Assembly: GCA_027263115.1 (NCBI GenBank)
Contig: GCA_027263115.1_3656.1
Length of the DNA: 64,000 nt
Strand: one strand, 5' to 3'
DNA from: a phage
Below the pieces are notes generated by a model, which saw only the letters and a program-made list of their open reading frames with translations, made no database searches and was not told the origin of the DNA. Position 1 is the first letter of the stretch. Every line of letters begins with the position of its first letter. Both the position numbers and the translations under genes were made by a program. Of the stretch, positions 1 through 14,226 are shown piece after piece.

Positions 1-263
1 ACACCGATGCGGAAAACAATATCTGCTGGGAGTTCGAAACTGAAGATATCCATAAACTTTTCACCTTCCTAGGTATTAAGGTTGAGGCCAAGTTTGAAGA
101 AGGCGAGTGCGACGATTGTGGATTCTACGAGGTAACAGATTTCTATCTCCCAAGTGGTGAGAACCTTTACTATGAAAGCCACTTCGGCAACTCAAATATG
201 CCACAAGGTTGGGATGAGTTTTTTGAAATTGCGGAAGAGGAGCTGACATACCGTGATTATTGA
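1..263 (+). CDS. hypothetical protein, C-terminal fragment (gene begins upstream of window)
   Basis: Open frame from window edge to TGA at 261-263, no internal stop. Confidence 0.45.
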   Translation, partial: TDAENNICWEFETEDIHKLFTFLGIKVEAKFEEGECDDCGFYEVTDFYLPSGENLYYESHFGNSNMPQGWDEFFEIAEEELTYRDY

Positions 264-711
264 TACTGTAGCGGGAGATTTAATCTCCCTTTTTAAGAGC
301 GGTGCTGGTCACCTGATCCACGGTTGTAACTGCTTTCATACAATGGGTGCAGGCATAGCGAAAGATATTGCCCGTGAGTTCCCTCAAGCACTGGCAGCCG
401 ACAAAGAGACTGCCTATGGTAATCTGGACAAGCTGGGTATGTTTTCTTGTTGGGAGCATTTTGCCAAGAACAGGGTCGTATATGGAATCAACCTGTATAC
501 CCAGTTCTACCCAGGGCCCAATGCTGAATACTTCTCAATAATGAAAGGTTTTGAGCGAGTCAACGAGGTATTCAAAGGTGTGTCATTGCCGTTCTACATT
601 CCTAAAATTGGATGCGGTATTGGCGGTCTAAAGTGGGAACATGTAGAAGATGTAATTAATCTTGCAACCACAGATATTGATGTGGTTGTAGTAGAGTACA
701 AAAAGTGTTGA
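253..711 (+). CDS. macro-domain-like protein (ADP-ribose binding/processing fold)
   Basis: 152 aa, GTG start after GAGGAG; Gly-rich segments HGCNCFHTMGAGIAKDIAREFP and PKIGCGIGG resemble macrodomain loops. Confidence 0.6.
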   Translation: MIIDTVAGDLISLFKSGAGHLIHGCNCFHTMGAGIAKDIAREFPQALAADKETAYGNLDKLGMFSCWEHFAKNRVVYGINLYTQFYPGPNAEYFSIMKGFERVNEVFKGVSLPFYIPKIGCGIGGLKWEHVEDVINLATTDIDVVVVEYKKC

Positions 712-736
712 CGACCATCTTCTGAGGTGATATAGT
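708..736 (+). promoter_or_regulatory. sigma70-type promoter TTGACG-N17-TATAGT
   Basis: Near-consensus -35/-10 with 17-nt spacer, upstream of small ORF 766..936. Confidence 0.5.
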
Positions 737-765
737 TTCCACAACAACTAAGAGAGGAGAGCACT

Positions 766-936
766 GTGGAGACTAAAATCTTAATTCTTGCTGTGGTAGA
801 TACAACCGAAGGAGCTATATTCGAATCTGCAGGGGGGTATTTCTACCTACCATACGGAAAAAGAACTTCCGAGCCAAGTAAAGATTCAATCCTCAAGGTG
901 TTCCCGTGTGCTTTCTGGCTGGAGATTTTGGTATAA
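766..936 (+). CDS. small hypothetical protein (56 aa)
   Basis: GTG start 5 nt after AGAGGAGAG; below 60-aa track cutoff; promoter immediately upstream. Confidence 0.4.
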   Translation: METKILILAVVDTTEGAIFESAGGYFYLPYGKRTSEPSKDSILKVFPCAFWLEILV

Positions 937-962
937 GATTGCAGAGGATTTGGGAGAGAATT

Positions 963-1157
963 ATGAGAAACAAGAAAGAGCTTTACTCTGGTGAGTGGAT
1001 CAACGATCAACAGGTGGGAGAGGTAACCTGCTTCAGATGTTTTACCAGGTACAATCTTAAAACTGCACCAAAAAGTGTTCCAAAGACTGATGGTTATTAC
1101 ATAAAAGAACCTCATTGCCCAAAATGTAAATGCCGATTGTACTGGAGCAATCTGTAA
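963..1157 (+). CDS. small zinc-ribbon protein
   Basis: ATG after GGGAGAG; two CxxC pairs (CFRC, CPKC); start trimmed from track ORF 906..1157. Confidence 0.5.
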   Translation: MRNKKELYSGEWINDQQVGEVTCFRCFTRYNLKTAPKSVPKTDGYYIKEPHCPKCKCRLYWSNL

Positions 1158-1161
1158 GAGG

Positions 1162-1189
1162 TTGACATCTGAAAACTGCAGTGTATAAT
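1162..1189 (+). promoter_or_regulatory. sigma70-type promoter TTGACA-N16-TATAAT
   Basis: Consensus hexamers upstream of ORF 1221. Confidence 0.55.
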
Positions 1190-1220
1190 ATACGCATAAA
1201 CTAACAGAGAGCGATGTATT

Positions 1221-1412
1221 ATGGTAATTTTTAACCGGGATGGTATCATAGTTAGACAGCACCCGTTCCTTGAATACTATCAAATTGAGCAATGGTGCTA
1301 CGGGGATTGCAATCACTCCTATGGGCAAAGTTGGGGATATCGTACAGTTTTTGAATCAACAGATCTTGACAAAGTAAGACAGAGAGTTTTAGAACTTATT
1401 AACAACAAGTGA
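1221..1412 (+). CDS. hypothetical protein
   Basis: 63 aa ORF downstream of consensus promoter. Confidence 0.5.
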   Translation: MVIFNRDGIIVRQHPFLEYYQIEQWCYGDCNHSYGQSWGYRTVFESTDLDKVRQRVLELINNK

Positions 1413-1419
1413 GTATGAT

Positions 1420-1755
1420 ATGGTAACATTAGAAAGACGTAAAGCTATCGCCGCCACACTGGCAGACATCTTTTGGGAGTGCAATTTAAAAGATACCCGA
1501 TATTGTGGCGCATCTGTAGATGCATTATTCCCACGGCCCACTATTGTTGCAATGGGAAACCTGTCAAACGTGGTGTATGGAGCATGGGACAAAGAAGGTG
1601 GATTTTATATCTGGCAACCTGACTACGGGACCTGGAAAGAGGTAAGGGGTGCGGATGACTTTGGGCCTGCAGTTGCCAAAACGATGGATGGCTGGCAAAT
1701 TTATGTTGGAAATGACATGAAGCTGAAAGGCGAGATTGTTTACTGGTTACCTTAA
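1420..1755 (+). CDS. hypothetical protein
   Basis: 111 aa ORF, 8 nt after previous stop (operon-like). Confidence 0.55.
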   Translation: MVTLERRKAIAATLADIFWECNLKDTRYCGASVDALFPRPTIVAMGNLSNVVYGAWDKEGGFYIWQPDYGTWKEVRGADDFGPAVAKTMDGWQIYVGNDMKLKGEIVYWLP

Positions 1756-1775
1756 GAAAGTGCAGGAGATAAAGT

Positions 1776-2021
1776 ATGAACAAAGGGTGGACATTTGTAG
1801 ACGGCGTTGAAAACATGCCTCTAGGAAAGTATATTGTAGCCATGGCAGATGAGAATGGCAAGGTTGATTTCGGAGCTTGCGAGATTGTTCTTGCAGGATC
1901 TGGTGACCATGTGCACAAAACTGGGATAATTAACGGTCATTTCTACTTTGATTACAACCCTGTTGTGGCGTATATGGCTATGCCAGAGTTAGAGCTCCCA
2001 AAGGAGGGTGCAGATGTTTAA
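1776..2021 (+). CDS. hypothetical protein
   Basis: 81 aa, SD GGAG upstream. Confidence 0.55.
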   Translation: MNKGWTFVDGVENMPLGKYIVAMADENGKVDFGACEIVLAGSGDHVHKTGIINGHFYFDYNPVVAYMAMPELELPKEGADV

Positions 2022-2211
2022 GCTTAAATCTGCATGGAACATCGCTGTGGGGGACGAGATCCGCATCCCAGGTGGAAAGACCATTATGAAGATATCACGT
2101 ATCGAGTATGAAGGTGATCGTGTATTTCATATCTTTGCAGAAGATGGTCGAGAAATTTATATACAGGCAGGCTCTCACATCTATATCCATAAGAAAGGGG
2201 ACGACAAATGA
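2008..2211 (+). CDS. hypothetical protein
   Basis: 67 aa, SD AAGGAGGG, overlaps previous stop. Confidence 0.5.
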   Translation: MQMFKLKSAWNIAVGDEIRIPGGKTIMKISRIEYEGDRVFHIFAEDGREIYIQAGSHIYIHKKGDDK

Positions 2212-2540
2212 CAGAGATCATCGTTTCAACTGCAGGGTATGTATTCCTGACAATCATTGCGTTGGCTATTCTGGTGGCGGTGTATGGATTTGTTATCCTG
2301 CCTATTCTTGAGACATTTAGCTTGTGTCGGTGTTGGAGAAAAGCTTACGGACCACAACCGTGGAAAGACTGGTTTCATTTGGTGCGTATAGCGTTCTCTT
2401 ATGCCTATGATCACTCCAGCAGTGCATGCGTAACCGGGTACCATGCCTACAACTGGAACTGGGAAGGGCTGGGGAGATGGACTGTTACAAAAACTATACC
2501 CTTACGGTTGTATAAAGGAAAGAACACACTGGGAGCCTGA
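2208..2540 (+). CDS. hypothetical membrane protein
   Basis: 110 aa, ATGA start/stop coupling, N-terminal hydrophobic helix. Confidence 0.55.
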   Translation: MTEIIVSTAGYVFLTIIALAILVAVYGFVILPILETFSLCRCWRKAYGPQPWKDWFHLVRIAFSYAYDHSSSACVTGYHAYNWNWEGLGRWTVTKTIPLRLYKGKNTLGA

Positions 2541-2850
2541 TATTTTAAGTTATCAGGTTGCCAGAGATCAGGAGGATTTCTAAAATGGATTTCCTCCTTT
2601 TGATATTTTACCTACCAGGATATTTTAAAATCCTTAGAAAATCAGAAAATGGATCGAAAACTAAAATGGATTTTTCAGAGCAGGCACGACGAGATGAACC
2701 ACTCATCCTATCGTCTGCACCATATTCCAGACCACCATTACAGATTTCCCGCACATGCTCACACCCTTCTACTAGAACTTCCCCCACTTACCCTTGACCT
2801 TTTATAGTAATAATCCAACCACTACCTTGAAGTTGTGGCGCAGCTTTCCA

Positions 2851-2938
2851 AGTACTCGATCTGTTTTTCGTTTCAAAGATTGAATTTTCTGAAAATTTTT
2901 CTCGATAAATTTCTCAGTACTCGATCTGTTTTTCGTTT
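2851..2938. repeat. direct repeat pair (22 bp AGTACTCGATCTGTTTTTCGTTT x2) in ORF-poor T-rich segment
   Basis: Identical copies at about 2851-2873 and 2916-2938, surrounded by related tttcgtttt / aaatggattt motifs. Confidence 0.6.
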
Positions 2939-3554
2939 TCTGAATCTGATTTTCTGGAAATCGTTCCGGCTCTCGACCTGAAATTTTTGGGGACGAAATC
3001 GATTTTTCGTTTTCAGAAATGGATTTTTAAAATTTCTATATGGGAATATTTTAGTGGATACTATTTTATAGGAAATTGTTACGGAGGGTAATTAGCGTGC
3101 TAATTAAATTTATTAAATGCGAGGAGTTCTCATTTAGAATTTTGAATGATAATCATTCTCGTTTGCAGAATAACGGGCAGGCCCGGTGATTGTCTCCCGG
3201 CCCCTACTGCCCCGGCTTGTTATTATAGTAACACACAGGACAAAGAAAGCAAGAAGTTTTTGCATAAATTTTTAGACGATAATGATAATCGTTCTCATTT
3301 CATGCAGCGCCCATCCCCGGTGGTTGTCTCCCCCGTCACCGGTGCCTGCCGTCCTTTCGATAGGTATATTTTGCCACCTGGCGGGGCCGCTGTCAACACT
3401 TTTCAAAAAAATTTCTAACCTGATGCGCTGACCGCTGCAACCTGGCGGGGCCAGCCTGGCAGGGCCTAACTGACCAGGTAGGAGAGAATGAAGGCTTGCA
3501 AACCTGGTGGGCCTATGCTATAGGATAGGTAACAATTGAAGAGGAGGTACAAAA

Positions 3555-3731
3555 ATGGAAGGTAATATGATCCCCCTGGAAAATGTAGCTATTAATGACG
3601 CTGAGGCTATCGCCCTGGTTGAAAAGGCTATGGCGGGAGCGTTGGAACATAAAGAAGAGTACGAAAAAATGATGGTTAACCTGGCAGGGGCGGCGGCTGG
3701 AGAATTCTACCCAAAAAATAATTTTAACTAA
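3555..3731 (+). CDS. small hypothetical protein (58 aa)
   Basis: ATG after GAGGAGG; below track cutoff; position confirmed relative to downstream ORF 3817. Confidence 0.5.
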   Translation: MEGNMIPLENVAINDAEAIALVEKAMAGALEHKEEYEKMMVNLAGAAAGEFYPKNNFN

Positions 3732-3734
3732 TGG

Positions 3735-3763
3735 TTGACAGCTCGGACAGTTCTTGTTATTCT
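3735..3763 (+). promoter_or_regulatory. sigma70-type promoter TTGACA-N17-TATTCT
   Basis: -35 consensus, moderate -10, upstream of ORF 3817. Confidence 0.45.
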
Positions 3764-3816
3764 TATCCTCGCAAGGTGAACAACACCACACTAATTAACA
3801 GAGAGGATAAAAAATC

Positions 3817-4014
3817 ATGAACGCCTACGGAATTAAAGTACGTCGCAACACTCGCCAGGTGGTCACCAATCAAGTGATTTGCCGGGTGGATGTAACCATC
3901 AACAACGGGCAAGGCCTTTATAAATTTCGTCGCGGTCATAGCTATACCCTGCAACAGCTTAACCGTTGCGCCCTGACAAAAGGTCAGATCAACCACTGGT
4001 TTAATAAAAAATAA
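3817..4014 (+). CDS. hypothetical protein
   Basis: 65 aa, SD AGAGGA upstream. Confidence 0.55.
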   Translation: MNAYGIKVRRNTRQVVTNQVICRVDVTINNGQGLYKFRRGHSYTLQQLNRCALTKGQINHWFNKK

Positions 4015-4026
4015 TGTTGACATATG

Positions 4027-4055
4027 GTCTGACACAAAATACACTGAAATCGCAA
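4027..4055 (+). promoter_or_regulatory. sigma70-type promoter TTGACA-N17-TACACT
   Basis: Hexamers upstream of ORF 4078. Confidence 0.45.
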
Positions 4056-4077
4056 AAGACACTAAGAGGATAAAATC

Positions 4078-4476
4078 ATGAAAACCACTACCTTTAATTT
4101 TGATAATGCGGACTTTTCTTTTTCTGATGTCAAGAACTGCCGCCGTGATCGTGGATTTTACAAGGCTTATAATCTGGTGGGCCTGGACGATGACAATAAT
4201 TTGCACGAAGTAGCTGAGATCCGGTATTATGCCGCCGCCAGTGGTAACACTCACTACTGCGTGTTTTGGATTCACGACAACAAGAACAATAAGTACGGTT
4301 ATACTGGCGGCAAGGCGAGCGGTCACGGTTACGATAAAGCTAACGCAGCACTTGAGAGTGCATTAAATGCTATGGGGATCACTGCCGACGGCTGGATCTA
4401 CGAAGAAGAGTTTTTGTCGGCACTTGCTGACCACCTGGGCTATAAAAAGCACATTGTGACATGCGCCCACGAATAA
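4078..4476 (+). CDS. hypothetical protein
   Basis: 132 aa, SD AAGAGGA upstream. Confidence 0.6.
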   Translation: MKTTTFNFDNADFSFSDVKNCRRDRGFYKAYNLVGLDDDNNLHEVAEIRYYAAASGNTHYCVFWIHDNKNNKYGYTGGKASGHGYDKANAALESALNAMGITADGWIYEEEFLSALADHLGYKKHIVTCAHE

Positions 4477-4482
4477 AAATCA

Positions 4483-4510
4483 TTGACACGCTGCAAAATT
4501 TAAGTAAACT
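4483..4510 (+). promoter_or_regulatory. promoter-like TTGACA-N16-TAAACT followed by leader hairpin
   Basis: Consensus -35, weak -10; GC hairpin GGCGGGG...CCCGCC then CA-rich leader. Confidence 0.4.
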
Positions 4511-4558
4511 AGACACAAAAGGCGGGGATGTTTCCCGCCAGCACAAAGGAAAAAGATC

Positions 4559-4954
4559 ATGAATAAGAACGTACGCCGCATCATGAACGAACTGGCAAAC
4601 GATGAAAAAATTATTGACATGCATTTATTCAACATTTGCCGCCGTTGTGTAACATATAACAACCGCGCCGCAAAAGCGCGTGAGATGAATGCGAAAGGCA
4701 CCTTAAAGCCCTTTCAGGTGGTTGTAAAATCTATAACCAGTGCAGCAGGCCAGGCGCATGACCACAACAACGAGAGCGCTAATATTGATCCGTCTTACGT
4801 AATGAAACGGATCCGGACTTGCAAGAATAAAGAGCAGGTGTATAACGTCATAGATTGGCTGGACTCCCTGGGTGATGTGGTTTACAATAGGTTTTCTGCA
4901 GCTATCGAGATCCAGCTTGACAGATTGGACGGGAAAGTACTGAAAACTTACTGA
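4559..4954 (+). CDS. hypothetical protein
   Basis: 131 aa, SD AAAGGAAAAAG. Confidence 0.6.
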   Translation: MNKNVRRIMNELANDEKIIDMHLFNICRRCVTYNNRAAKAREMNAKGTLKPFQVVVKSITSAAGQAHDHNNESANIDPSYVMKRIRTCKNKEQVYNVIDWLDSLGDVVYNRFSAAIEIQLDRLDGKVLKTY

Positions 4955-4955
4955 G

Positions 4956-5001
4956 TTTATTTTTAGATGGCCTTGACTCCAGGGCCATCAATAAAGTAAA
5001 C
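4956..5001. repeat. 46-bp intergenic repeat element, copy 1 (TTTATTTTTAGATGGCCTTGACTCCAGGGCCATCAATAAAGTAAAC)
   Basis: Near-identical copies at 5575-5620 and 9310-9355; contains ATGGCC/GGCCAT inverted repeat and TTGACT box. Confidence 0.7.
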
Positions 5002-5033
5002 TAACCACAGTTGAGCGGAAAGGGGGCTTAAAG

Positions 5034-5153
5034 ATGAGTACTACACGCCAGCACACAAAGGTAACTATTATCGTTTGCATCATTGGTTACATCCTGGCGC
5101 AAATGTTGATGGGTAGCGCCAACGGTATCGCAAAATTTTTCTTAAACTTTTAA
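5034..5153 (+). CDS. small hydrophobic peptide (39 aa)
   Basis: ATG after AAGGGGG; single TM-like helix; paralog-like to the 11513 peptide (shared S-x-NGI motif). Confidence 0.4.
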   Translation: MSTTRQHTKVTIIVCIIGYILAQMLMGSANGIAKFFLNF

Positions 5154-5181
5154 TTGACAAGCTAACTTAGATCAGTATACT
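5154..5181 (+). promoter_or_regulatory. sigma70-type promoter TTGACA-N16-TATACT
   Basis: Hexamers followed by GGGAA/TTCCC leader hairpin. Confidence 0.5.
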
Positions 5182-5231
5182 AAACACATAAACGGGAAAA
5201 CTTCCCAGAACACACAAAAGGAGAAAACACC

Positions 5232-5573
5232 ATGACTACTATGACCGCCGCAGAAAAAGCTATGCAGATCGCCGCGCTGAAAAAACAGATCGCAGACCTT
5301 GAGAATAAGATCGATAACTTTGAAATCGACGAGGACAAGTACGACGAAAACTATGATGAATGGTTAGACGAGATCTACGGCGAAATTATGATCGGAAACA
5401 TTTCTTTTCTTCCGTCGCGTATCCTCAAGGAGCTAGATCCTATCGCTTACCGCTGCGGATTTAGCGACTACATCGACAGCTTGGATATTGAGGACGATGA
5501 AGAATACCAGGAATTGCATACAGAGCTTGAAGAAGTGAAAGAAGAGCTTGCAGAACTGGAAGAAAACGAGTAA
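5232..5573 (+). CDS. highly acidic coiled-coil protein (DNA-mimic candidate)
   Basis: 113 aa, SD AAGGAG; roughly one third Asp/Glu with heptad-like N-terminus. Confidence 0.6.
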   Translation: MTTMTAAEKAMQIAALKKQIADLENKIDNFEIDEDKYDENYDEWLDEIYGEIMIGNISFLPSRILKELDPIAYRCGFSDYIDSLDIEDDEEYQELHTELEEVKEELAELEENE

Positions 5574-5574
5574 A

Positions 5575-5620
5575 TTTATTTTTAGATGGCCTTGACTCCA
5601 GGGCCATCAATAAAGTAAAC
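5575..5620. repeat. 46-bp intergenic repeat element, copy 2
   Basis: Identical to copy 1 over about 46 bp. Confidence 0.7.
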
Positions 5621-5662
5621 TTTATACTGTTAACACTGAACTAATGCATAGGAGTTAAAACC

Positions 5663-5908
5663 ATGGCAGCACTAATCACCAAATATTATGCCCCTACCAA
5701 CACCAAAAGCGCCCGTATCATGGTAAAAGGCTTCGGACGTAAAAAGGTTTACACCTGGGATTATGCCTTAGACACGGAAGACAACTACACCAACGCGATG
5801 ACCGATTTTATTAATGACCTGAACACGCGGATCTTGACAAATTATCAAATTACCGATATTGCCTATATAGGGGAAGGCGGGATCTGTTTTGTCGGTATCG
5901 TCAAATAA
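5663..5908 (+). CDS. hypothetical protein
   Basis: 81 aa, SD TAGGAG. Confidence 0.55.
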   Translation: MAALITKYYAPTNTKSARIMVKGFGRKKVYTWDYALDTEDNYTNAMTDFINDLNTRILTNYQITDIAYIGEGGICFVGIVK

Positions 5909-5983
5909 GCTGGTTTTTCGGTGGTCCTGGTAGCAGGGCCATCTATAAAGATAGTTTATCAACACAATGAAAGGAGAAAGTAC

Positions 5984-6331
5984 ATGATCAGCGGGGCTAG
6001 TTTTATTATTGGCGCTATTGCTACGGCTTTAATTGTAAACAAGATCCAGGATAAAAAGGAAAGTACCGCCCTTGCAGAATATCCATTTTGGACATTCAAC
6101 GATAATGAAGATTATATTATAAAGTATAAAAATAAAGAAGGTGACCAAGTAACACCGCGACCGATCCCGGCTTACAAAATGCAGGAAACACTGTACCGCC
6201 TGGAAGCGGGGGGCGCAAAAATTGTAGACTTTTGGGGATACGATCACACAGATCAGGAAGTTATAAAGCGCCGTATCCGGGCTATTCAGGCCAATATTGA
6301 AGTTAGCAAGGGGGGAATATATGAAGATTAA
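5984..6331 (+). CDS. hypothetical membrane-anchored protein
   Basis: ATG after AAAGGAGAAAG (start trimmed from track ORF 5921); N-terminal hydrophobic helix. Confidence 0.55.
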   Translation: MISGASFIIGAIATALIVNKIQDKKESTALAEYPFWTFNDNEDYIIKYKNKEGDQVTPRPIPAYKMQETLYRLEAGGAKIVDFWGYDHTDQEVIKRRIRAIQANIEVSKGGIYED

Positions 6332-7720: not shown

Positions 7721-7728
7721 ATAAAGTG

Positions 7729-7756
7729 TTGCAATAATCTAAAAACCTGCTATATT
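7729..7756 (+). promoter_or_regulatory. promoter TTGCAA-N16-TATATT with leader hairpin
   Basis: Followed by GGGGCAA-loop-TTGCCCC hairpin and CA-rich leader. Confidence 0.45.
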
Positions 7757-7809
7757 AAAACTCAAGGGGGCAAGACGTTTGCCCCACACAAAACAAAGAG
7801 GAAAACATT

Positions 7810-8190: not shown

Positions 8191-8200
8191 TCAGGTAACA

Positions 8201-8226
8201 GGCGGCATATTTGCCGCCTTATTGTT
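8201..8226 (+). terminator. rho-independent terminator
   Basis: GGCGGCA-loop-GCCGCC hairpin followed by TTATTGTT. Confidence 0.55.
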
Positions 8227-8254
8227 AAACAGAACTGCAAAAGAGGTACATAGA

Positions 8255-8626
8255 ATGGAATTTATTATTTTGGCCGTATTAGTTGCCTTGTTTAACGCCT
8301 GGATCGCTGGCAAGATGGGTAGATCCGCCTTTTTATGGTTTATTATATCTATTTTCCTGGGGGTGGTTTCAACTATTGTACTTGTTATCCTTGCAATTGT
8401 TGACAAAGGTGATAATAGAAAGGGTAAAGTATTTTCCGACCTGTATGACGCGCAAACATTTGTCAACGCCTATTATAGTGATCTTCCAGTCTCCCTACGC
8501 TGCAGCCTTGCACAACAGGTTTTCGATGAAGCTAAAACCAGAGATCACGCCCATGAGATTTGTTTAACTGAGGCGGATCGCCTATTTGAGAGGAATAGAA
8601 AATATGTGGGCCAGCCGTTTAAATAA
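8255..8626 (+). CDS. hypothetical membrane protein (two predicted TM helices)
   Basis: ATG after AAAGAGGTA (start trimmed from track ORF 8222). Confidence 0.55.
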   Translation: MEFIILAVLVALFNAWIAGKMGRSAFLWFIISIFLGVVSTIVLVILAIVDKGDNRKGKVFSDLYDAQTFVNAYYSDLPVSLRCSLAQQVFDEAKTRDHAHEICLTEADRLFERNRKYVGQPFK

Positions 8627-8849
8627 TACCACGTTAATTAATCCCTTTGATGAAGATTTGAAGCCAGCCGCCTGGCGTGATGGATTCAATAACGAACGCT
8701 TTATTTTCAGGCCTGATCTTAAGGAATTTTATAACAATGGATCGAACAACGACAGAGATAATTTTTCTTGTGATGTGCGTGGTGATGGTACTCCTGGGGG
8801 CCATTGTAAACCACGTCACTACTACCAGGATGAAAGGGGGAGACGATGA
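8604..8849 (+). CDS. hypothetical protein
   Basis: ATG after GAGAGGAATAG, overlaps previous gene by 23 nt. Confidence 0.4.
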   Translation: MWASRLNNTTLINPFDEDLKPAAWRDGFNNERFIFRPDLKEFYNNGSNNDRDNFSCDVRGDGTPGGHCKPRHYYQDERGRR

Positions 8850-8965
8850 CAACCAAGGATAAGCCCCGCACCGATAAGGTGCGCCGGGTTATGGTATGGC
8901 TTGAGATCATCGCCCTTGAAATATTGTTAGGCGTAGGGATGTATTTTATCGCTGTAAGTAACTGA
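8846..8965 (+). CDS. small hydrophobic peptide (39 aa)
   Basis: ATGA overlap with previous stop, SD GGGGGAG, single TM-like helix. Confidence 0.4.
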   Translation: MTTKDKPRTDKVRRVMVWLEIIALEILLGVGMYFIAVSN

Positions 8966-8969
8966 TAAC

Positions 8970-9012
8970 GGCCCCCGATCCCTGGGGGCCTAACTTTTTA
9001 AAATTTTTTTTC
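8970..9012 (+). terminator. rho-independent terminator
   Basis: GGCCCCC-loop-GGGGGCC hairpin followed by long T-rich run. Confidence 0.6.
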
Positions 9013-9022
9013 TCCCTGAGTG

Positions 9023-9052
9023 TTGCAATCCGATCCAGAATATGGATAATAA
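9023..9052 (+). promoter_or_regulatory. promoter-like TTGCAA-N18-TAATAA
   Basis: Shares ATATGGATAATAA core with the 10186 promoter; followed by leader hairpin. Confidence 0.4.
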
Positions 9053-9106
9053 TAATCAACGGGGAGCTAATCCCCACCAACACAAAAACCAGAAAGGAGA
9101 AACAAA

Positions 9107-9307
9107 ATGAGCAACAATATCCGCGTTATTAACTTCAAAAAAGAAGAAAAAATTGCCGTGCTGATTGACGGTCAAGAAATCTTCAAGGGCTATTATGAAG
9201 ATCATCAAACGGCGATTAGTATCACTCGCGTGATTGGTTACCATAATTTTTACCCCCAAGGCGCTGAGGCGGCGGTTAAACGAATCAAAGAGATTGTAGG
9301 CCTGTAA
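9107..9307 (+). CDS. hypothetical protein
   Basis: 66 aa, SD AAAGGAGAAA. Confidence 0.55.
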   Translation: MSNNIRVINFKKEEKIAVLIDGQEIFKGYYEDHQTAISITRVIGYHNFYPQGAEAAVKRIKEIVGL

Positions 9308-9309
9308 AA

Positions 9310-9355
9310 TTTATTTTTAGATGGCCTTGACTTCAGGGCCATCAATAAAGTAAAT
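9310..9355. repeat. 46-bp intergenic repeat element, copy 3
   Basis: Two mismatches relative to copies 1 and 2. Confidence 0.65.
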
Positions 9356-9391
9356 TTAAACCCTGTTAAAAGACCACGCAGTTAACAAGGA

Positions 9392-9700
9392 GTGATAGAC
9401 ATGTTTATCCAGGCTAATAATCTTTATTTCTTTGATGGTCAGATCGTAGATGGTGTGGAAGTGGAGATCACCGGGTGCCCTGGCGGTCAGGCTATGACTT
9501 TTCGGAATAATGCCTTTGATGATTCTCATATCGTTATGAGAATGGAAGTTACGAAGCTGGACGACAAGAAAACACTTATTGACTATTCTGTGAAAGATCA
9601 TCCAGACTACCACATGATCTATGGTGATTTGTGCGTTGTTGACCGTGACAAGGTGGGCGGCATTGTGATCGCTATTGTGAACGATGTTTTCTCAAACTAA
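9392..9700 (+). CDS. hypothetical protein
   Basis: 102 aa, SD AAGGAG. Confidence 0.6.
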   Translation: MIDMFIQANNLYFFDGQIVDGVEVEITGCPGGQAMTFRNNAFDDSHIVMRMEVTKLDDKKTLIDYSVKDHPDYHMIYGDLCVVDRDKVGGIVIAIVNDVFSN

Positions 9701-9717
9701 TTTCAGCAGGTGATTTT

Positions 9718-10068
9718 ATGAAAATAAAACTATATTACCTTAATGAGCTTAACCCCCTTGCCCAGGTCCGCGCCATAGCTAATACCTTGATTTGTGAGAA
9801 ATCTGTATATTGTGTTGAGCTTAACGCCATGCGTGAACGTCTCAAAGGTGGTTACTTTGACATCCATACTGCAATCAACGGCCTGAATATGGAATTTATA
9901 CGCTTACGTAACAGCCGCTGGAATCTGGCAAGAATGGAACAAGATCCGGCCTACCTTCGTAAGCTGGTTATTGAAAATCATCTGATGTTTAATGCCGAGG
10001 GTGATTATTACCATTTTCACCGCAGACGCTGGTACCGTGGCGGCAATACAGGCAAGAATGCAAAATAA
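9718..10068 (+). CDS. hypothetical protein
   Basis: 116 aa ORF following previous gene. Confidence 0.5.
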   Translation: MKIKLYYLNELNPLAQVRAIANTLICEKSVYCVELNAMRERLKGGYFDIHTAINGLNMEFIRLRNSRWNLARMEQDPAYLRKLVIENHLMFNAEGDYYHFHRRRWYRGGNTGKNAK

Positions 10069-10103
10069 GGCCCCTAGCAGGGCCTGCAGCAATATAATCA
10101 CAT

Positions 10104-10137
10104 AAAGGCCATGCAACCGCATGGCCTTTATTATTTT
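10104..10137 (+). terminator. rho-independent terminator
   Basis: 11-bp stem AAAGGCCATGC/GCATGGCCTTT, then ATTATTTTGG. Confidence 0.65.
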
Positions 10138-10185
10138 GGCGTTACAACGGCATACGGGGCGCTTAAAAAATTTTTAAAGAAGTAC

Positions 10186-10215
10186 TTGCATCATTCCCGA
10201 CAATATGGATAATAA
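10186..10215 (+). promoter_or_regulatory. promoter-like TTGCAT-N18-TAATAA
   Basis: Paralog of the 9023 promoter, followed by GGGGG/CCCCC hairpin. Confidence 0.4.
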
Positions 10216-10270
10216 GAGTTGTCGAGGGGGAGGCCCCCAATCGTTGACCAGATAGATAGGAGTTAAAATC

Positions 10271-10555
10271 ATGGCTATTGTTACCGCTGGCGATGTAGTA
10301 GAAATGGAAGCAAAATACTTAAAAGCGGGTATGCACATCCTACGGAATGATCAAGAGTTATTATTAACGATGGTTGACTATAATCCCGGCCAGGATTATC
10401 CAAGCATCGACTACTTTTTTGAGTATGTTGATGAAGAGTTGAAAGAGGATGAGGCATATTGCGGTGAGTTCTGCAACTTCTTTTGTCCTGATGAGGTTGT
10501 AAAGGTTATTTATCAACCTGGCGTACCTTTCCCACTGCACGCTATCAATAAATAA
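10271..10555 (+). CDS. hypothetical protein
   Basis: 94 aa, SD TAGGAG. Confidence 0.6.
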   Translation: MAIVTAGDVVEMEAKYLKAGMHILRNDQELLLTMVDYNPGQDYPSIDYFFEYVDEELKEDEAYCGEFCNFFCPDEVVKVIYQPGVPFPLHAINK

Positions 10556-10609
10556 ACCTGGCGGGGCCGAAAAGGCCCCAATTATGAAAATAAAGAGAGG
10601 TAAATCATC

Positions 10610-10843
10610 ATGATGGAACAAATTAAACGCGCTGAGGCTATTAATGGCAATGTGATCTATTTTGTCAGCAAAAACGAAAAAGGCGTACCATATGCGGCGG
10701 TAATAGTACAACCTGACGGCGATTATTGGTTTACTGTGTACGGCGCTTATTCTTTTGGGCGTCCAGTGCATGATAAAATTTTGAAAGTAGCGAACCCTAC
10801 CGGGAAGAATATCACAGCAGAAAAATTTTTTGAAAATAGTTGA
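10610..10843 (+). CDS. hypothetical protein
   Basis: 77 aa, SD AGAGAGGTAAA. Confidence 0.55.
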   Translation: MMEQIKRAEAINGNVIYFVSKNEKGVPYAAVIVQPDGDYWFTVYGAYSFGRPVHDKILKVANPTGKNITAEKFFENS

Positions 10844-10867
10844 CATGACCATATAAGACTGTAATAT
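10840..10867 (+). promoter_or_regulatory. sigma70-type promoter TTGACA-N16-TAATAT
   Basis: Hexamers then leader hairpin GGGGC/GCCCC. Confidence 0.5.
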
Positions 10868-10918
10868 ATAAATCAAAGGGGGCAACAAGCCCCACCAACC
10901 ACAAAGAGGATAAAAATC

Positions 10919-11098
10919 ATGGCTATTATTGCAAAGACTGAGATCGTAGGCTTAGATTCTATTCTACTCGCATATGAGGAAGCTATAGAAATGTATGTGG
11001 TTTCCTACGGTGAATATATCCGTGAATATAAATCTATTGATCTAGCTTTTGAATGTTATATTCGCCAGGTCAATAAAGCATATGATGATTATCGTTAA
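10919..11098 (+). CDS. small hypothetical protein (59 aa)
   Basis: ATG after AAGAGGATAAAAA; below track cutoff. Confidence 0.5.
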   Translation: MAIIAKTEIVGLDSILLAYEEAIEMYVVSYGEYIREYKSIDLAFECYIRQVNKAYDDYR

Positions 11099-11189
11099 AA
11101 TAGTTTGACAACAAACAACCATCTAACAAAGCATAATACATAAGGTGGTAGAATGATCCGCCACCTGGAACAAAGAAGAGGTAAACACC

Positions 11190-11435
11190 ATGAAAAGCAA
11201 TAAAGGTTATAACGGTTACAAAAACAAAACTCATTGGAATGTAAGCCTTTGGATTAATAACGATGAGTCATTGTACCGGTTGGCCCAAGGCTTTATTAAC
11301 GCCAATGCTAATCGTAATGATGCGGCGCGGGATATGATGCTTTTTCTGGAGCTAACCGGACAAGATAAGACCCCGGACGGCTTCAAGTACAGCACTACGG
11401 CGATCCGTGCCGCGATGGTTGGAATGAAACACTAA
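11190..11435 (+). CDS. hypothetical protein
   Basis: 81 aa, SD AAGAGGTAAA; preceded by GGTGG...CCACC leader hairpin. Confidence 0.55.
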   Translation: MKSNKGYNGYKNKTHWNVSLWINNDESLYRLAQGFINANANRNDAARDMMLFLELTGQDKTPDGFKYSTTAIRAAMVGMKH

Positions 11436-11512
11436 AAGCATATAGCCGCCTTACCCTGGGGCCGCTGCTACGGCCCCATGAATAAGGTTACTAACAGAAG
11501 AGAATAAACACC

Positions 11513-11617
11513 ATGAAACAAAAATTAATTGATGCTGTGATCCTGGTTATTGCCTTAGGTATTGGCCTGATTGCAACCATGGCTAATGTGATCTTGTCTT
11601 CCAACGGTATCGGGTGA
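11513..11617 (+). CDS. small hydrophobic peptide (34 aa)
   Basis: ATG after leader hairpin and AGAAGAGAATAAA; TM-like; shares SSNGI motif with the 5034 peptide. Confidence 0.4.
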   Translation: MKQKLIDAVILVIALGIGLIATMANVILSSNGIG

Positions 11618-11626
11618 GGTTGACAA

Positions 11627-11842
11627 ATGATCACTAACAAAACAGGAAAAACAGAATTTTTACGCAACTTACAGATCGGCAAGCCTGAGATCTGGCATTG
11701 CACTAAAACACCACGTGACGAAATGAAAGACTTCACCGCCACGCTGCAACGGGTAAAGATATCCATCACGCAGAAAAAGGCCTTGCTAGTGGTGGAAGGT
11801 GAGATCCCCCAAACCGTTGTTATAGTTGAGCGTACAGCATAG
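11627..11842 (+). CDS. hypothetical protein
   Basis: 71 aa, weak SD GAGGT. Confidence 0.45.
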   Translation: MITNKTGKTEFLRNLQIGKPEIWHCTKTPRDEMKDFTATLQRVKISITQKKALLVVEGEIPQTVVIVERTA

Positions 11843-11933
11843 TTTAATTTATAGAGATACCTGAAAATTAACCAATAAAGCATAAACAGGCGGTTACCGC
11901 CGCCTTAAACGTAGCAGAAAGAGGATAGACACA

Positions 11934-12218
11934 ATGAAAAAGATGATCGCAGTGGTTGCCCTAGTTGTTGGACTTAATGCGCCTGTAATGGCTAAAGAGC
12001 TGGCAAAAGAGGTTAATCTAACGGATATTCATGCCGTCAATCAAATCGGGGTTACTTATCGCTTATGCCTTGCCGCTAAAACTTTTAATGACGGCACAAC
12101 AGAGTACTACGGATTCGAGGGTATCCGGTGCGGTGAGCTTGCTCGCGACCTTAAGGAAGATCCAGATCTGGAAGATCTACCCATCACCGTAAACGGTAAA
12201 GCTTACGTAAACCGTTAA
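11934..12218 (+). CDS. secreted/periplasmic small protein
   Basis: 94 aa, SD AAGAGGA; N-terminal signal-peptide-like MKKMIAVVALVVGLNAPVMA. Confidence 0.6.
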   Translation: MKKMIAVVALVVGLNAPVMAKELAKEVNLTDIHAVNQIGVTYRLCLAAKTFNDGTTEYYGFEGIRCGELARDLKEDPDLEDLPITVNGKAYVNR

Positions 12219-12220
12219 CC

Positions 12221-12355
12221 ATGAGAAAGATAATCATCACCTTGGGGATTGTGGTAGCAATACTGGCGCTCTTTCCCCTTATGGTTAGGTATGTGCTGAT
12301 CAGTGTTGTCCTGATAGTCAGCGATCTATTGGAAACGGTTGGCACCTTGTTTTAA
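12221..12355 (+). CDS. small hydrophobic peptide (44 aa)
   Basis: Starts 3 nt after previous stop, no clear SD, strongly hydrophobic. Confidence 0.3.
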   Translation: MRKIIITLGIVVAILALFPLMVRYVLISVVLIVSDLLETVGTLF

Positions 12356-12368
12356 AGAGCGATAAAAA

Positions 12369-12560
12369 ATGAATATCGAACAAGTTAGAAAGGTATTAGC
12401 GGTACTGCGTTATCATAATCATAGAAAGGTCATAGACGATCCTGATTATGTTGATTCAAGTCTAGAAGAGGATACACTACAAGCCATAAGTAACATGCAA
12501 GAATTGCTAAAGCGCATGACAGAGAAAAACAGACCGGACTACATAGGCGAAAAAATATAA
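12369..12560 (+). CDS. hypothetical protein
   Basis: 63 aa ORF in gene array. Confidence 0.5.
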   Translation: MNIEQVRKVLAVLRYHNHRKVIDDPDYVDSSLEEDTLQAISNMQELLKRMTEKNRPDYIGEKI

Positions 12561-12577
12561 TATTTATAAACTACAAA

Positions 12578-12607
12578 ACAGGGCTTGCAATGGCCCTGTT
12601 TTTGTTA
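12578..12607 (+). terminator. rho-independent terminator
   Basis: ACAGGGC-loop-GCCCTGT hairpin followed by TTTTTGTT. Confidence 0.65.
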
Positions 12608-12687
12608 TACTTATTCTACGGCAGGCACCTGGCGACGGGGGGAGACAATCACCGGGCCTGCCTGTCATACAAGAACTATAAAAACCG

Positions 12688-12716
12688 TTGACATCTGCCA
12701 TGGGGTGGGGTAACAT
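12688..12716 (+). promoter_or_regulatory. promoter TTGACA-N17-TAACAT
   Basis: Followed by GGGCA/TGCCC hairpin and CA-rich leader. Confidence 0.45.
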
Positions 12717-12770
12717 TTATCTTGAAGGGGCAAAAGTGCCCACACAACAACCAGGAGAGAGGAAAACATT

Positions 12771-13043
12771 ATGTCAAGCTGGATTAATCAAGAAGTCGAA
12801 TCACGTTTTAATGCTATATGGGATCTCATCGAAAAAGAGGACGGAACATCAAGCCCCTACCTCAACAATTTGGAATTCCATTTTGTGGAAGCGATGAACG
12901 CAGAACATGATCACGAAGGTGGCGCGGATGAGTTCGCTAAAGGTTATGGCTTTAACAATGCCAACGAAATGATCGAGGCGGTTGTACTCCAGGCTGAGGA
13001 AGATTATCAATTAAAAACGCTTGAATTCTGCCGCCGTAAGTAA
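12771..13043 (+). CDS. acidic hypothetical protein
   Basis: 90 aa, SD AGGAGAGAGG. Confidence 0.6.
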   Translation: MSSWINQEVESRFNAIWDLIEKEDGTSSPYLNNLEFHFVEAMNAEHDHEGGADEFAKGYGFNNANEMIEAVVLQAEEDYQLKTLEFCRRK

Positions 13044-13103
13044 TAAGATAATGACACGGGCCAAAAGGCCCACTAATCAGAACCACACAAAGGGAGAAAG
13101 AAA

Positions 13104-13322
13104 ATGACAACCCGTAAAATTAAAGTTGTTTGCATTGAATCGACTGGGGGCGCTTTTGTAGTTGGTCAGGAATATAATGCGGTTTTAATGGGTACGGATT
13201 GGAAGGTTAAAGGCCTTAATGGTTACGAGTACGGCACTACTTGCGGCTTGCGTGGTCGAATCGGATACGTGAGTTTAGACAATAAAGAAAAATTTGTTTT
13301 CGACACCCTTGTGAGTAAATAG
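13104..13322 (+). CDS. hypothetical protein
   Basis: 72 aa, SD AAGGGAGAAAG; preceded by GGGCC/GGCCC hairpin. Confidence 0.55.
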   Translation: MTTRKIKVVCIESTGGAFVVGQEYNAVLMGTDWKVKGLNGYEYGTTCGLRGRIGYVSLDNKEKFVFDTLVSK

Positions 13323-13400
13323 CATGAATTGCTAAAGACTGATCTGCGAACTGCTGTATTATCAACTAATCAAAACGAACCACATAAAGAGGTAAACATC

Positions 13401-13664
13401 ATGAAACGTCTTGATCAGCTCAAACTAGTTCAGTACATGGCCTACAGAATTCTTGAAGTCCAAAAAGGTAGCAAAAAAGAGGTTTGCGAGAAAGCTTATA
13501 AGATCTTTACCCGCAAAAAAGATGACTGGATGCTACGCCAGACCAAAAAGGCTGACATCTTGGGGTACCTGGAAGAAGAGATCCGCCTTGAAGAGCAAGA
13601 AGAGATCCGCCGCAGTGAAGCAGATTATCAGGCAGCTTGGGAAAACTGGATGAATAACAAATAA
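13401..13664 (+). CDS. hypothetical protein
   Basis: ATG after AAGAGGTAAA (start trimmed from track ORF 13329); Lys/Glu-rich. Confidence 0.5.
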   Translation: MKRLDQLKLVQYMAYRILEVQKGSKKEVCEKAYKIFTRKKDDWMLRQTKKADILGYLEEEIRLEEQEEIRRSEADYQAAWENWMNNK

Positions 13665-13728
13665 TACAACAAGTTACGGTCAGGGGGCAATAAAGCCCCT
13701 TGATCACATAAAAATTATGCTATCCTTA

Positions 13729-13757
13729 TTGACAAGGATCGGCAGTTTTGCTATATT
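13729..13757 (+). promoter_or_regulatory. sigma70-type promoter TTGACA-N17-TATATT
   Basis: Hexamers upstream of ORF 13807. Confidence 0.5.
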
Positions 13758-13806
13758 CTTTTTTAAAGGGAAGTTGTAAGAAAATTAACTAAGAGGTAAA
13801 AACACC

Positions 13807-14226
13807 ATGAACATTAAATCTAATAATCCGGCATATAGCTTTGATAACGCTTTTTGTCACGGTCCGGCGGCGAAAGGATTCGAAATCGATGGTAAACTAA
13901 TTATTGTCAATGTTGACGGGGAAGAGGTTGCAGTATATCCGGTGGCAGACGTAAAAAGCCGTTTACAATGCCGCATTGATGTTACCGCCTATCAGCTTGA
14001 TCCGGTCCGCATAGTTGCCCTGGTCCTGGAAGAAGAAATTAAAGCCATGCACCATAGCAACAGGTTTATTGGTGACGCTCAGGATAATATGAAGGTGTGC
14101 CGCCATAAAGTTAATGAAGTGCTTAAAGAGTACGGCTATAAAGATCTTATGATCAAACGTGATGAAAAATTCCGGTACCGTAACGACCTGGCAAATCGAA
14201 TCTATGAAATATACGAATCATTATAA
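13807..14226 (+). CDS. hypothetical protein
   Basis: 139 aa, SD AAGAGGTAAAAA; last gene of rightward early array. Confidence 0.6.
   Translation: MNIKSNNPAYSFDNAFCHGPAAKGFEIDGKLIIVNVDGEEVAVYPVADVKSRLQCRIDVTAYQLDPVRIVALVLEEEIKAMHHSNRFIGDAQDNMKVCRHKVNEVLKEYGYKDLMIKRDEKFRYRNDLANRIYEIYESL

Follow-up and report, generated by a model that had tools for sequence, protein, structure and literature searches.

A small-gene block in a Vequintavirus genome as a probable accessory toolbox, with an embedded conserved non-coding island

We analyzed a 64,000-nucleotide (nt) stretch of phage DNA (contig GCA_027263115.1_3656.1 of GenBank assembly GCA_027263115.1; here called the window) with respect to its first 14 kilobases (kb), where an original prediction made from the letters alone had placed an early module of short genes for host takeover and anti-defence at positions 253–14226. 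The window belongs to a Vequintavirus, i.e. an rV5-like coliphage, and shares ~95% identity with published genomes. With a probability of about 0.7, we read the block as the distal 14 kb of the Vequintavirus accessory small-gene region, a toolbox for host manipulation and counter-defence in which a non-coding element is embedded. By its sequence, the small-gene block itself is an already published feature of the rV5 phage group, because promoters and terminators tabulated for rV5 recur here. New in this analysis is the conserved non-coding island, currently annotated as 'essential genes', which we consider the most interesting item, above the block itself.

A megablast search with positions 1–14500 returned 299 phage records, the best of which (98% query coverage, 93–95% nucleotide identity) were all Vequintavirus, i.e. 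E. coli myophages such as SophiaRose, FFH2, rV5_ev168 and inoa. Similarity to rV5-type genomes was collinear across 253–14226. The plus strand of the window corresponds to the minus strand of rV5, and the block roughly matches rV5 genes 206 down to 164, thereby forming the far end of the region of "88 mainly small ORFs" (open reading frames) described by Kropinski et al. 2013 (PMC3606486). These authors placed the small genes in the transcription unit '10-1-238-164' and listed in their Table S4 the sigma-70 promoters P164, P168, P174, P185, P186, P192, P194, P195, P195A and P205 as well as the terminators t164, t177, t181 and t184; the promoter and terminator sites of this table were recovered at equivalent places in the block. 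Phage Bas54, identified as phage MaxBurger (MZ501093.1), shows 95.3–95.7% nucleotide identity to the block and has 43 genes annotated at the equivalent locus. In annotated relatives, a primase-helicase gene, the DNA polymerase gene, about fourteen small genes, the macrodomain gene, the block and a non-coding region follow each other on the same strand. The block is thus located on one strand between the DNA polymerase operon and a large non-coding region, and its proposed start at 253 had to be given up, as the same array runs on upstream of the window to the DNA polymerase gene. Two papers in which phage EdH4 was used, on CRISPRi-ART and on Hachiman, had no content on this block. Approximately 20 GenBank records within MG065644–MG065682, named 'Campylobacter phage' (host C. 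jejuni), are 93–98% identical to this E. coli Vequintavirus block, which suggests mislabelled or contaminated entries.

On the plus strand, 41 candidate genes (g1–g41) of 34–207 amino acids (aa) were detected as ORFs with ribosome-binding sites, and 39 of them, covering ~75% of the block, are supported as genes. When the block was aligned to three relatives, substitutions at codon positions 1:2:3 amounted to 267:152:765; the array therefore consists of real genes under purifying selection. Two candidates at 2585–2797 (14:17:19) and 3146–3418 (2:4:3) lack codon periodicity, both being located within a non-coding stretch of ~1 kb. A dense array had been expected and was found, all on one strand; the expected count of about 45 genes of 35–207 aa had to be reduced to 39 with 34–207 aa. 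Also in line with the expectation, Pfam, NCBIfam, PHROGs and PADLOC agree on the macrodomain of g1 as the only enzymatic domain. Named domains were otherwise matched only in g3 (phage zinc-binding), g19 (T7 gp1.1-like) and g32 (DUF7249). At E ≤ 0.01, Pfam returned Macro, Phage_zn_bind_2, DUF7249, Phage_1_1 and seven marginal matches (E 0.001–0.009), none of which is an inhibitor family. The PHROG families matched are all of unknown function, except that of g1, which PHROGs labels 'phosphatase'. Small membrane peptides or proteins are encoded by g8, g15, g18, g23, g25, g33 and g36. The genes g28, g32, g33 and g39 are present in some close relatives and absent from others, and g32 and g39 also occur in other genera.

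Sigma-70-type sites with at least 10 of 12 matching positions were found 15 times on the plus strand, compared to 2.79 ± 1.61 expected from dinucleotide shuffles, and sites with at least 11 of 12 five times, compared to 0.17 expected from such shuffles. The TTGACA hexamer occurs 19 times on the plus and 6 times on the minus strand (5.25 expected). Sigma-70 promoters above chance on the coding strand are what a host-RNA-polymerase-dependent early class should have. Eleven sites with at least 10/12 are located 30–58 nt upstream of the starts of g2, g4, g12, g13, g14, g16, g20, g21, g31, g38 and g41, i.e. 11 of the 39 genes have such a promoter in the upstream gap; 7 more have a 9/12 match, and 11 genes overlap their neighbour or are separated from it by less than 25 nt, leaving no room for a promoter of their own. 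Clean plus-strand intrinsic terminators are present only after g19, g22, g25, g28, g37 and g41. Because of these gap sizes, promoters and terminators, the block is by sequence organized in ~14 short operons of one to seven genes each and not with one promoter and terminator per gene. The enrichment of near-consensus promoters is confirmed, and the statement that most genes have their own promoter and terminator is overstated. The promoter class comprises TTGACA, a spacer of 16–18 nt, TAnnnT and an A/T-rich upstream region. A motif proposed as 'late' in rV5, TGGTAAAATA, was also considered and discarded: its behaviour is that of an extended −10 element, and the block cannot be told apart from other regions by it.

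The features outside the island are listed below, with the equivalent rV5 site or the Bas54 orthologue in parentheses; all class labels refer to the transposon class of the orthologue on E. coli K-12, and substitutions are given by codon position.

253–711, plus strand: g1, 152 aa, macrodomain, Tk.4/AdfM family (bas54_0092, non-essential)
708–736, plus strand: promoter TTGACG-17-TATAGT (10/12, TG-extended) for g2–g3
766–936, plus strand: g2, 56 aa, Shine-Dalgarno sequence AGGAG, substitutions 8:1:14 (bas54_0093, non-essential)
963–1157, plus strand: g3, 64 aa, phage zinc-binding, Pfam Phage_zn_bind_2 8e-23 (bas54_0094, non-essential)
1162–1189, plus strand: promoter TTGACA-16-TATAAT (12/12) for g4–g8 (P205)
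1221–2540, plus strand: operon of g4 (1221–1412), g5 (1420–1755), g6 (1776–2021), g7 (2014–2211) and g8 (2208–2540, with membrane helix), gaps of 7, 20, −8 and −4 nt (bas54_0095–0099; 0095 with reduced fitness, others non-essential)
3555–3731, plus strand: g11, 58 aa, Shine-Dalgarno sequence AGGAGG (bas54_0103, 'Intermediate')
3735–3763, plus strand: promoter TTGACA-17-TATTCT (10/12) for g12 (P195A)
3817–4014, plus strand: g12, 65 aa, very basic, isoelectric point 11 (bas54_0104, non-essential)
4017–4045, plus strand: promoter TTGACA-17-TACACT (10/12) for g13 (P195)
4078–4476, plus strand: g13, 132 aa, substitutions 3:0:18 (bas54_0105, non-essential)
4483–4510, plus strand: promoter TTGACA-16-TAAACT (10/12) for g14 (P194)
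4559–4954, plus strand: g14, 131 aa, helical (bas54_0106, non-essential)
5034–5153, plus strand: g15, 39 aa membrane peptide, 9/12 promoter at 4973 (bas54_0107, non-essential)
5154–5181, plus strand: promoter TTGACA-16-TATACT (11/12) for g16–g19 (P192)
5232–5573, plus strand: g16, 113 aa, very acidic coiled coil (bas54_0108)
5663–5908, plus strand: g17, 81 aa, 9/12 promoter at 5592, substitutions 6:3:31 (bas54_0109, non-essential)
5984–6331, plus strand: g18, 115 aa, N-terminal membrane helix, substitutions 10:6:38 (bas54_0110, 'Essential')
6321–6518, plus strand: g19, 65 aa, T7 gp1.1-like, basic, Pfam Phage_1_1 8.9e-12 (bas54_0111, non-essential)
6527–6546, plus strand: intrinsic terminator GCCCCGC...GCGGGGC-TTTTTATTT after g19
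6699–6727, plus strand: promoter TTGACA-17-TATACT (11/12) for g20 (P186)
6763–7032, plus strand: g20, 89 aa (bas54_0112, non-essential)
7012–7039, plus strand: promoter TTGACA-16-TATAAT (12/12) for g21–g22 (P185)
7097–7720, plus strand: g21, 207 aa, acidic, motifs SGFWSQGDGASF and HYxHENT (bas54_0113, non-essential)
7810–8190, plus strand: g22, 126 aa, 9/12 promoter at 7729, substitutions 3:2:33 (bas54_0114, non-essential)
8200–8219, plus strand: intrinsic terminator after g22 (t184)
8255–8965, plus strand: operon of g23 (8255–8626, membrane protein, 'putative holin' in the Bas54 annotation), g24 (8604–8849) and g25 (8846–8965, membrane peptide), no promoter match in the upstream gap (orthologues all non-essential)
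8970–8990, plus strand: intrinsic terminator after g25 (t181)
9107–10068, plus strand: g26 (9107–9307), g27 (9401–9700) and g28 (9718–10068, missing in phage YN3), 9/12 promoters at 9023 and 9327 (bas54_0118–0120, non-essential)
10102–10131, plus strand: intrinsic terminator after g28 (t177)
10271–10555 and 10610–10843, plus strand: g29 and g30, 9/12 promoter at 10244 (bas54_0121 and 0122, non-essential)
10840–10867, plus strand: promoter TTGACA-16-TAATAT (10/12) for g31–g37 (P174)
10919–12560, plus strand: operon of g31 (10919–11098), g32 (11190–11435, DUF7249), g33 (11513–11617), g34 (11627–11842), g35 (11934–12218, signal-peptide-like N-terminus), g36 (12221–12355) and g37 (12369–12560)
12575–12602, both strands: bidirectional terminator hairpin after g37
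12688–12716, plus strand: promoter TTGACA-17-TAACAT (10/12) for g38–g40 (P168)
12771–13664, plus strand: g38 (12771–13043), g39 (13104–13322, accessory) and g40 (13401–13664)
13729–13757, plus strand: promoter TTGACA-17-TATATT (11/12, TG-extended) for g41 (P164)
13807–14226, plus strand: g41, 139 aa, last gene of the arm (bas54_0134, 'Intermediate')
14245–14262, plus strand: intrinsic terminator closing the arm after g41 (t164)

GC-rich hairpins were noticed at 4521–4539 and 10879–10893, just downstream of the g14 and g31 promoters, i.e. in the predicted 5′ leaders. In EdH4, both carry a terminator label, and the genes downstream are conditionally essential in Bas54; the hairpins could instead be leader stem-loops or terminators for antisense transcription.

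Functional data on this locus are provided by transposon-insertion sequencing of the near-identical Bas54 in the HIDEN-SEQ preprint (10.1101/2025.11.20.689424), from which all Bas54 fitness data given here were taken. The genes bas54_0092–0134 map one-to-one onto g1–g41 with 86–100% aa identity (a range counted for 38 of the 39 supported genes), barring g9 (no Bas54 counterpart), g32 (swapped for a different gene) and g33 (53%). On K-12, 34 of the 43 Bas54 genes were classified as non-essential, 2 as having reduced fitness, 3 as intermediate, 1 as having a strong defect (0102), 2 as essential (0101, 0110) and 1 remained unclassified. Among the genes of the block that clearly code for protein, g18 alone is essential; in its orthologue 0110, insertions were present at 9 of 31 TA sites. 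In a uropathogenic clinical isolate, seven genes were significantly depleted, with the following log2 fold changes: 0106 (g14) −3.18 (q<1e-5), 0123 (g31) −2.85, 0126 (g34) −2.34, 0127 (g35) −2.24, 0132 (g39) −4.34, 0133 (g40) −5.18 (q=0.003 for 0132 and 0133) and 0134 (g41) −2.88 (q<1e-5). The depletion sheet was treated as that of isolate CFE311, since it shows depletion of bas54_0140, which the preprint text ties to CFE311. The whole run 0123–0129 is at log2 fold changes of −2.1 to −2.9, of which only 0123, 0126 and 0127 are significant. This run coincides with the operon predicted between the promoter at 10840 and the terminator at 12575, and polar insertions in one transcription unit are therefore the simplest explanation. 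According to the preprint methods, bas54_0108 (g16) is depleted in isolate CFE303.

The one tool that can be assigned would be g1. It matches Pfam Macro, DarG of PADLOC (1.4e-13) and antitoxin_DarG of NCBIfam (1.7e-12), and aligns over its full length with Tk.4 of phage T2 (39% identity and 65% positives over 150 aa, E 1e-43), with which it has the motifs HGCNCFHTMG, NLYTQFxPGPN and PxIGxGIG in common. The best match in the PDB is the DarG macrodomain of M. tuberculosis (5M3I). In T4, tk.4 is required against DarTG2 and was named adfM, its product being an anti-DarTG2 factor; in Bas54, the g1 orthologue bas54_0092 was neutral on K-12 and on the clinical isolate (both 10.1101/2025.11.20.689424). 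By its full-length homology, g1 is of the Tk.4/AdfM type, and it is a reasonable inference that it would clear DNA of the ADP-ribose marks set by DarT2. An assignment as a DarG antitoxin proper was rejected: the score was 47 bits at an NCBIfam cutoff of 250, only the first 144 of 338 profile positions were matched, the protein consists of the macrodomain only, and TQF is aligned where DarG has TKK.

Taken together, the ~14 operons that hold the 39 genes would each begin at a promoter suited to the unmodified E. coli sigma-70 RNA polymerase, and, judging from promoter type, the genes would most likely be expressed from the start of infection alongside the replication genes with the same promoter class. 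Immediate-early timing of the block is therefore plausible as a prediction from promoter sequences. Most products would be small lineage-restricted proteins that are dispensable on a defence-poor laboratory host, and a subset, as shown for Bas54, would be needed only in particular hosts. From the predicted reservoir for host takeover and anti-defence, the accessory character and counter-defence are retained in part, in view of the dispensability in Bas54, the seven host-dependent genes and the g1–Tk.4 pair; conditionally essential genes show no clear concentration in this block. As candidates we name g1 against DarTG2 and g14, g31–g37 and g39–g41 against defences of isolate CFE311.

The island lies between g8 and g11 in a gap of 1,014 nt (2541–3554), with its core at ~2840–3540. 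Annotators differ on small ORFs in this gap on both strands, and substitutions by codon position (43:45:45) show no codon periodicity. Across seven Vequintavirus genomes with 5–9% divergence elsewhere, the part at ~2900–3540 hardly varies, and the element is better conserved than the genes. Among its few changes are two in length, namely one extra nucleotide within 'ORF 0102' of EdH4 (a 1-nt insertion) and a poly-A tract that varies in length. In the HIDEN-SEQ data, 'bas54_0101' (window 2987–3091) had insertions at 0 of 11 TA sites and was called 'Essential', and 'bas54_0102' (window 3146–3424) had insertions at 5 of 15 TA sites with very low counts and a strong defect. The island is the one place in the block where Bas54 resists transposon insertion. 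We take it for an essential non-coding element and not for the three small genes now annotated there, probably a cis-acting site (origin, regulatory region) or a non-coding RNA locus. It contains the following features, among them two units of ~135 nt with one Fur-box-like site each:

2842–3027, no strand: island part 1, three direct repeats of ~65 nt (starts 2842, 2907, 2981), overlapping the annotated 'ORFs' bas54_0100 and 0101
3020–3140, no strand: island part 2, A+T-rich segment with hardly any variation among 7 Vequintavirus genomes
3142–3160, no strand: Fur-box-like operator 1, TTGAATGATAATCATTCTC, 15/19 to GATAATGATAATCATTATC
3278–3296, no strand: Fur-box-like operator 2, GATAATGATAATCGTTCTC, 17/19, within the second ~135-nt repeat unit
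3368–3396, minus strand: strong promoter TTGACA-17-(TG)CAAAAT, directed back into the island
3372–3517, no strand: island part 3, four (A/C)ACCTGGCGGGGCC copies (a fifth copy of the ACCTGGCGGGGCC motif at 3678 inside g11) and the variable-length poly-A tract near 3405–3411

The Fur-box matches at 3278–3296 and 3142–3160 are the two best plus-strand matches in the window, and the sequence suggests that the island probably binds Fur or a Fur-like factor. The core around Fur box 1 was found with 77–88% nucleotide identity in Phapecoctavirus, Mydovirus, Certrevirus and Seunavirus phages; the hosts of the phages with core homologues belong to Klebsiella, Proteus, Pectobacterium, Salmonella, Serratia and Enterobacter. 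The invariant part among these homologues is the inverted repeat AATGAnAAnnnTTCTCnTT. In the other genera, the element is mostly unannotated and flanked by unrelated genes. In Klebsiella phage KpS11, the neighbours of the core are unrelated to g8 and g11, and synteny is therefore no explanation for the conservation of the core. A predicted minus-strand transcript from 3362 to 3100 folds with z = −3.73, better than 200 of 200 shuffles, and the plus strand has z = 0. Rfam (E-value mode) on 1–18000 gave one sub-threshold chance match, none in the island. Two further candidates were discarded. For a conserved structured RNA on the plus strand, RNAalifold on eight core homologues gave −4.8 kcal/mol with no convincing consensus or covariation. 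For a small protein on the minus strand over the Fur-box core, the frame ending in ...ARYSANENDYHS is open through the core in the homologues examined, but neither its start nor its N-terminus is conserved, and the same holds for a ribosome-binding site; such a conserved protein is therefore improbable, and the open frame would be a by-product of DNA conservation.

Combining these observations, we tentatively propose, at odds clearly below even, that the island is an essential element of the whole rV5 supergroup, i.e. an origin or a minus-strand RNA locus, which is Fur-gated via two to three operators. As a replication origin, it would be made up of the 65-nt repeats, an A/T-rich stretch and GC-rich repeats. 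If true, Fur gating would couple phage development to the iron status of the host, and a conserved, possibly iron-sensing control point would exist across a large, therapeutically used phage group.

Several points weigh against the toolbox reading of the block. By sequence, the block has no separate promoter class, the same class being present at similar density in the minus-strand arm beyond the block and, with 25 sites in 36 kb, ahead of genes for replication and nucleotide metabolism. A time-resolved infection transcriptome was found in the literature for no Vequintavirus, and 'early' here denotes promoter type only. In the BASEL study, Vequintavirinae were 'exceptionally susceptible' to restriction-modification and seem to have no effective protection, which argues against potent anti-restriction genes in the block. 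In agreement with this, none of the 41 products matched an anti-restriction or anti-CRISPR family (ArdA, Ocr, KlcA etc. in Pfam), a search made with general Pfam profiles and not with a dedicated anti-defence database; the anti-restriction function considered in the original prediction is not evident. In g1, no lysine aligns to the 'PTKK' motif of DarG, and its chemistry is deduced from T4 genetics only. Concerning the transposon data, the effects may be polar, and 7 of the 27 conditionally essential genes fall within this block of 43 out of 227 genes, where ~5 are expected; the block thus holds a stock of host-specific genes, but cannot be shown to be the principal one in the genome. So far, none of the seven depleted genes is paired with a defence system, and the Bas54 anti-defence genes validated to date (0063, 0140) are located outside the block (10.1101/2025.11.20.689424). 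Finally, the depletion sheet used is labelled CFE303, and its command line names the '311' library (CFE311). In Extended Data Table 8 of the preprint, the sheets 'K-12 vs CFE303' and 'K-12 vs CFE311' share this command line (BW vs 311 library) as well as 27 hits, so that the table for CFE303 seems to repeat the analysis of CFE311.

A rather unlikely alternative to immediate-early host takeover is an accessory region of the delayed-early or middle class with a link to DNA replication, co-expressed with the polymerase and nucleotide-metabolism genes, the products of which would mainly tune replication, membrane physiology or superinfection exclusion. The occurrence of the same promoter class and density before the replication genes is in its favour, as are the primase-helicase and DNA polymerase genes that precede the block on its strand, the many small membrane peptides including the essential membrane protein g18, and the two candidate cis-acting regions flanked by the block. 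At the level of sequence, this alternative makes no prediction distinct from that of a toolbox; the host-specific need for g14, g31–g37 and g39–g41 and the AdfM homologue, however, point to host-variable targets more than to core replication.

It is improbable that the block is mostly evolutionary cargo, i.e. selfish or recent ORFans with little function, kept as large heads tolerate extra DNA. Most genes are indeed dispensable on K-12, most families are narrowly distributed and of unknown function, and some genes come and go between close relatives. Against this stand the strong third-position substitution bias in nearly all genes, indicating purifying selection, gene order and content kept at 90–95% identity in dozens of isolates from several continents, and the host-dependent fitness effects of seven genes.

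After g41, a non-coding, repeat-rich region of ~3.4 kb (14263–17700) separates two convergent small-gene arms. It comprises iteron-like repeats of the GTAAACAGT type (14723–15637), other direct and inverted repeats, and minus-strand promoters near 15340–15387; the equivalent region of ~2 kb in Bas54 had no transposon insertions (10.1101/2025.11.20.689424). Beyond it, a mirror-image arm of ~35 small genes on the minus strand (~17.7–29 kb) has the same promoter class. In this arm, the gene at ~17777–18088 is the orthologue of bas54_0140, which Bas54, together with one other gene, was shown to need against defence system DS-28, and bas54_0150–0152 and 0157 were also strongly depleted in the clinical isolate. 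Further away, seven transfer RNA genes are present at 57527–58338, one ARAGORN call at 57995–58093 being 99 nt long with a four-base anticodon (ATCC).

As regards the genome ends, rV5 was reported to be circularly permuted (Kropinski et al. 2013, PMC3606486). According to PhageTerm, the same applies to the genomes of four bovine Vequintavirus isolates, and another Vequintavirus was called headful-packaged. With permuted ends, no fixed segment enters the cell first. These reports conflict with a block that is injected first and adjoins an injection-stop or terminus-like element, and that idea should be dropped. A T5-style pre-early region for first-step transfer, bounded by such an element in the adjacent repeats and encoding host shut-off functions required for entry of the remaining genome, could draw on this insertion-free repeat region and on several GenBank records opened inside it, but is highly improbable given the permutation and headful packaging, the dispensability of nearly all block genes (unlike T5 A1 and A2), the continuity of the block with the polymerase operon upstream and the mirror arm beyond the repeats. 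Consistently, no domains like those of T5 A1, A2 or Dmp were found among the block products in Pfam, NCBIfam and PHROGs.

Among the other genes of the block, homologues of g14 and g41 were confined to close relatives of the rV5 type, with at least 74% identity. The AlphaFold2 (AF2) model of g14, a candidate host-specific (counter-defence) factor, shows a long helix and a 3-helix bundle at moderate confidence (pLDDT, predicted local distance difference test, of 76). That of g41 has a small N-terminal sheet followed by helices, also at moderate confidence (pLDDT 70), with no significant fold match in the PDB; in Phapecoctavirus, a 420-nt gene with DNA similarity occupies the same last position. 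The family of g21 is very large and uncharacterised (1459 clusters at 50% identity, E ≤ 1e-3), and its domain also occurs inside giant multi-domain proteins, one of which has an N-terminal Fic domain. The g21 profile found no relative in the PDB, and Pfam has no family for g21 or the larger proteins with this domain, save Fic in the one case; by analogy, such a distribution is typical of conflict-related proteins. The DUF7249 gene g32 is found at 80–93% nucleotide identity in Phapecoctavirus, phi92-like phages, jumbo phages (310–356 kb) and the 42-kb siphovirus PGT2, and thus behaves as a promiscuously exchanged small gene. For g39, matches over at least 80% of its length were obtained in only 39 phage records of Vequintavirus and Phapecoctavirus, and many Vequintavirus genomes have no g39. 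By these sequence matches, both g32 and g39 are mobile between phage genera. Two labels in some records were not adopted and look like annotation carry-over, namely 'DNA translocase FtsK' for g40, in which Pfam finds no FtsK domain, and the note 'contains Rel homology domain' for g41, which Pfam does not reproduce.

Compared with known systems, the block resembles the T5 pre-early region in its compact small genes, host-type promoters and adjoining repeat-rich non-coding region; in T5, however, this region is a fixed terminal repeat with the essential genes A1 and A2, whereas here the genome is permuted, the genes can nearly all be dispensed with and homologues of A1 and A2 are missing. With the class I/II early genes of T7 (0.3 Ocr, 1.1, 1.2), the block shares g19 as a member of the gp1.1 family (Pfam PF08200, 8.9e-12), but it has no homologue of Ocr or gp1.2, and T7 gp1.1 itself is of unknown function. 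The non-essential early gene clusters of T4, which are driven by sigma-70 early promoters and include tk.4/adfM, 30.3/adfN and further counter-defence genes, are similar: in both, many small genes stand behind strong promoters of the host type preceded by A/T-rich sequence, most of them can be dispensed with in the laboratory, and the need for them is conditional on particular host defences, with g1 and Tk.4 as a homologous pair. Unlike in T4, neither an ADP-ribosyltransferase of the Alt/Mod type nor MotA/AsiA or any other factor that switches promoters came up in the block, and rV5-like phages have no protective DNA modification and are restriction-sensitive. The small-ORF region of rV5 (genes ~164–206) and bas54_0092–0134 represent the same locus with the same gene order, promoters, terminators and trailing non-coding region. 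As the block has been described in rV5 and is being mined experimentally in Bas54, flagging it again adds little; what is added here is the gene-by-gene map to the Bas54 fitness data and an operon model explaining the polar pattern. Compared to these two phages, the present isolate has its own mix of the variable genes g28, g32, g33 and g39, and the ORFs annotated there at 2585–3424 are reclassified here as non-coding.

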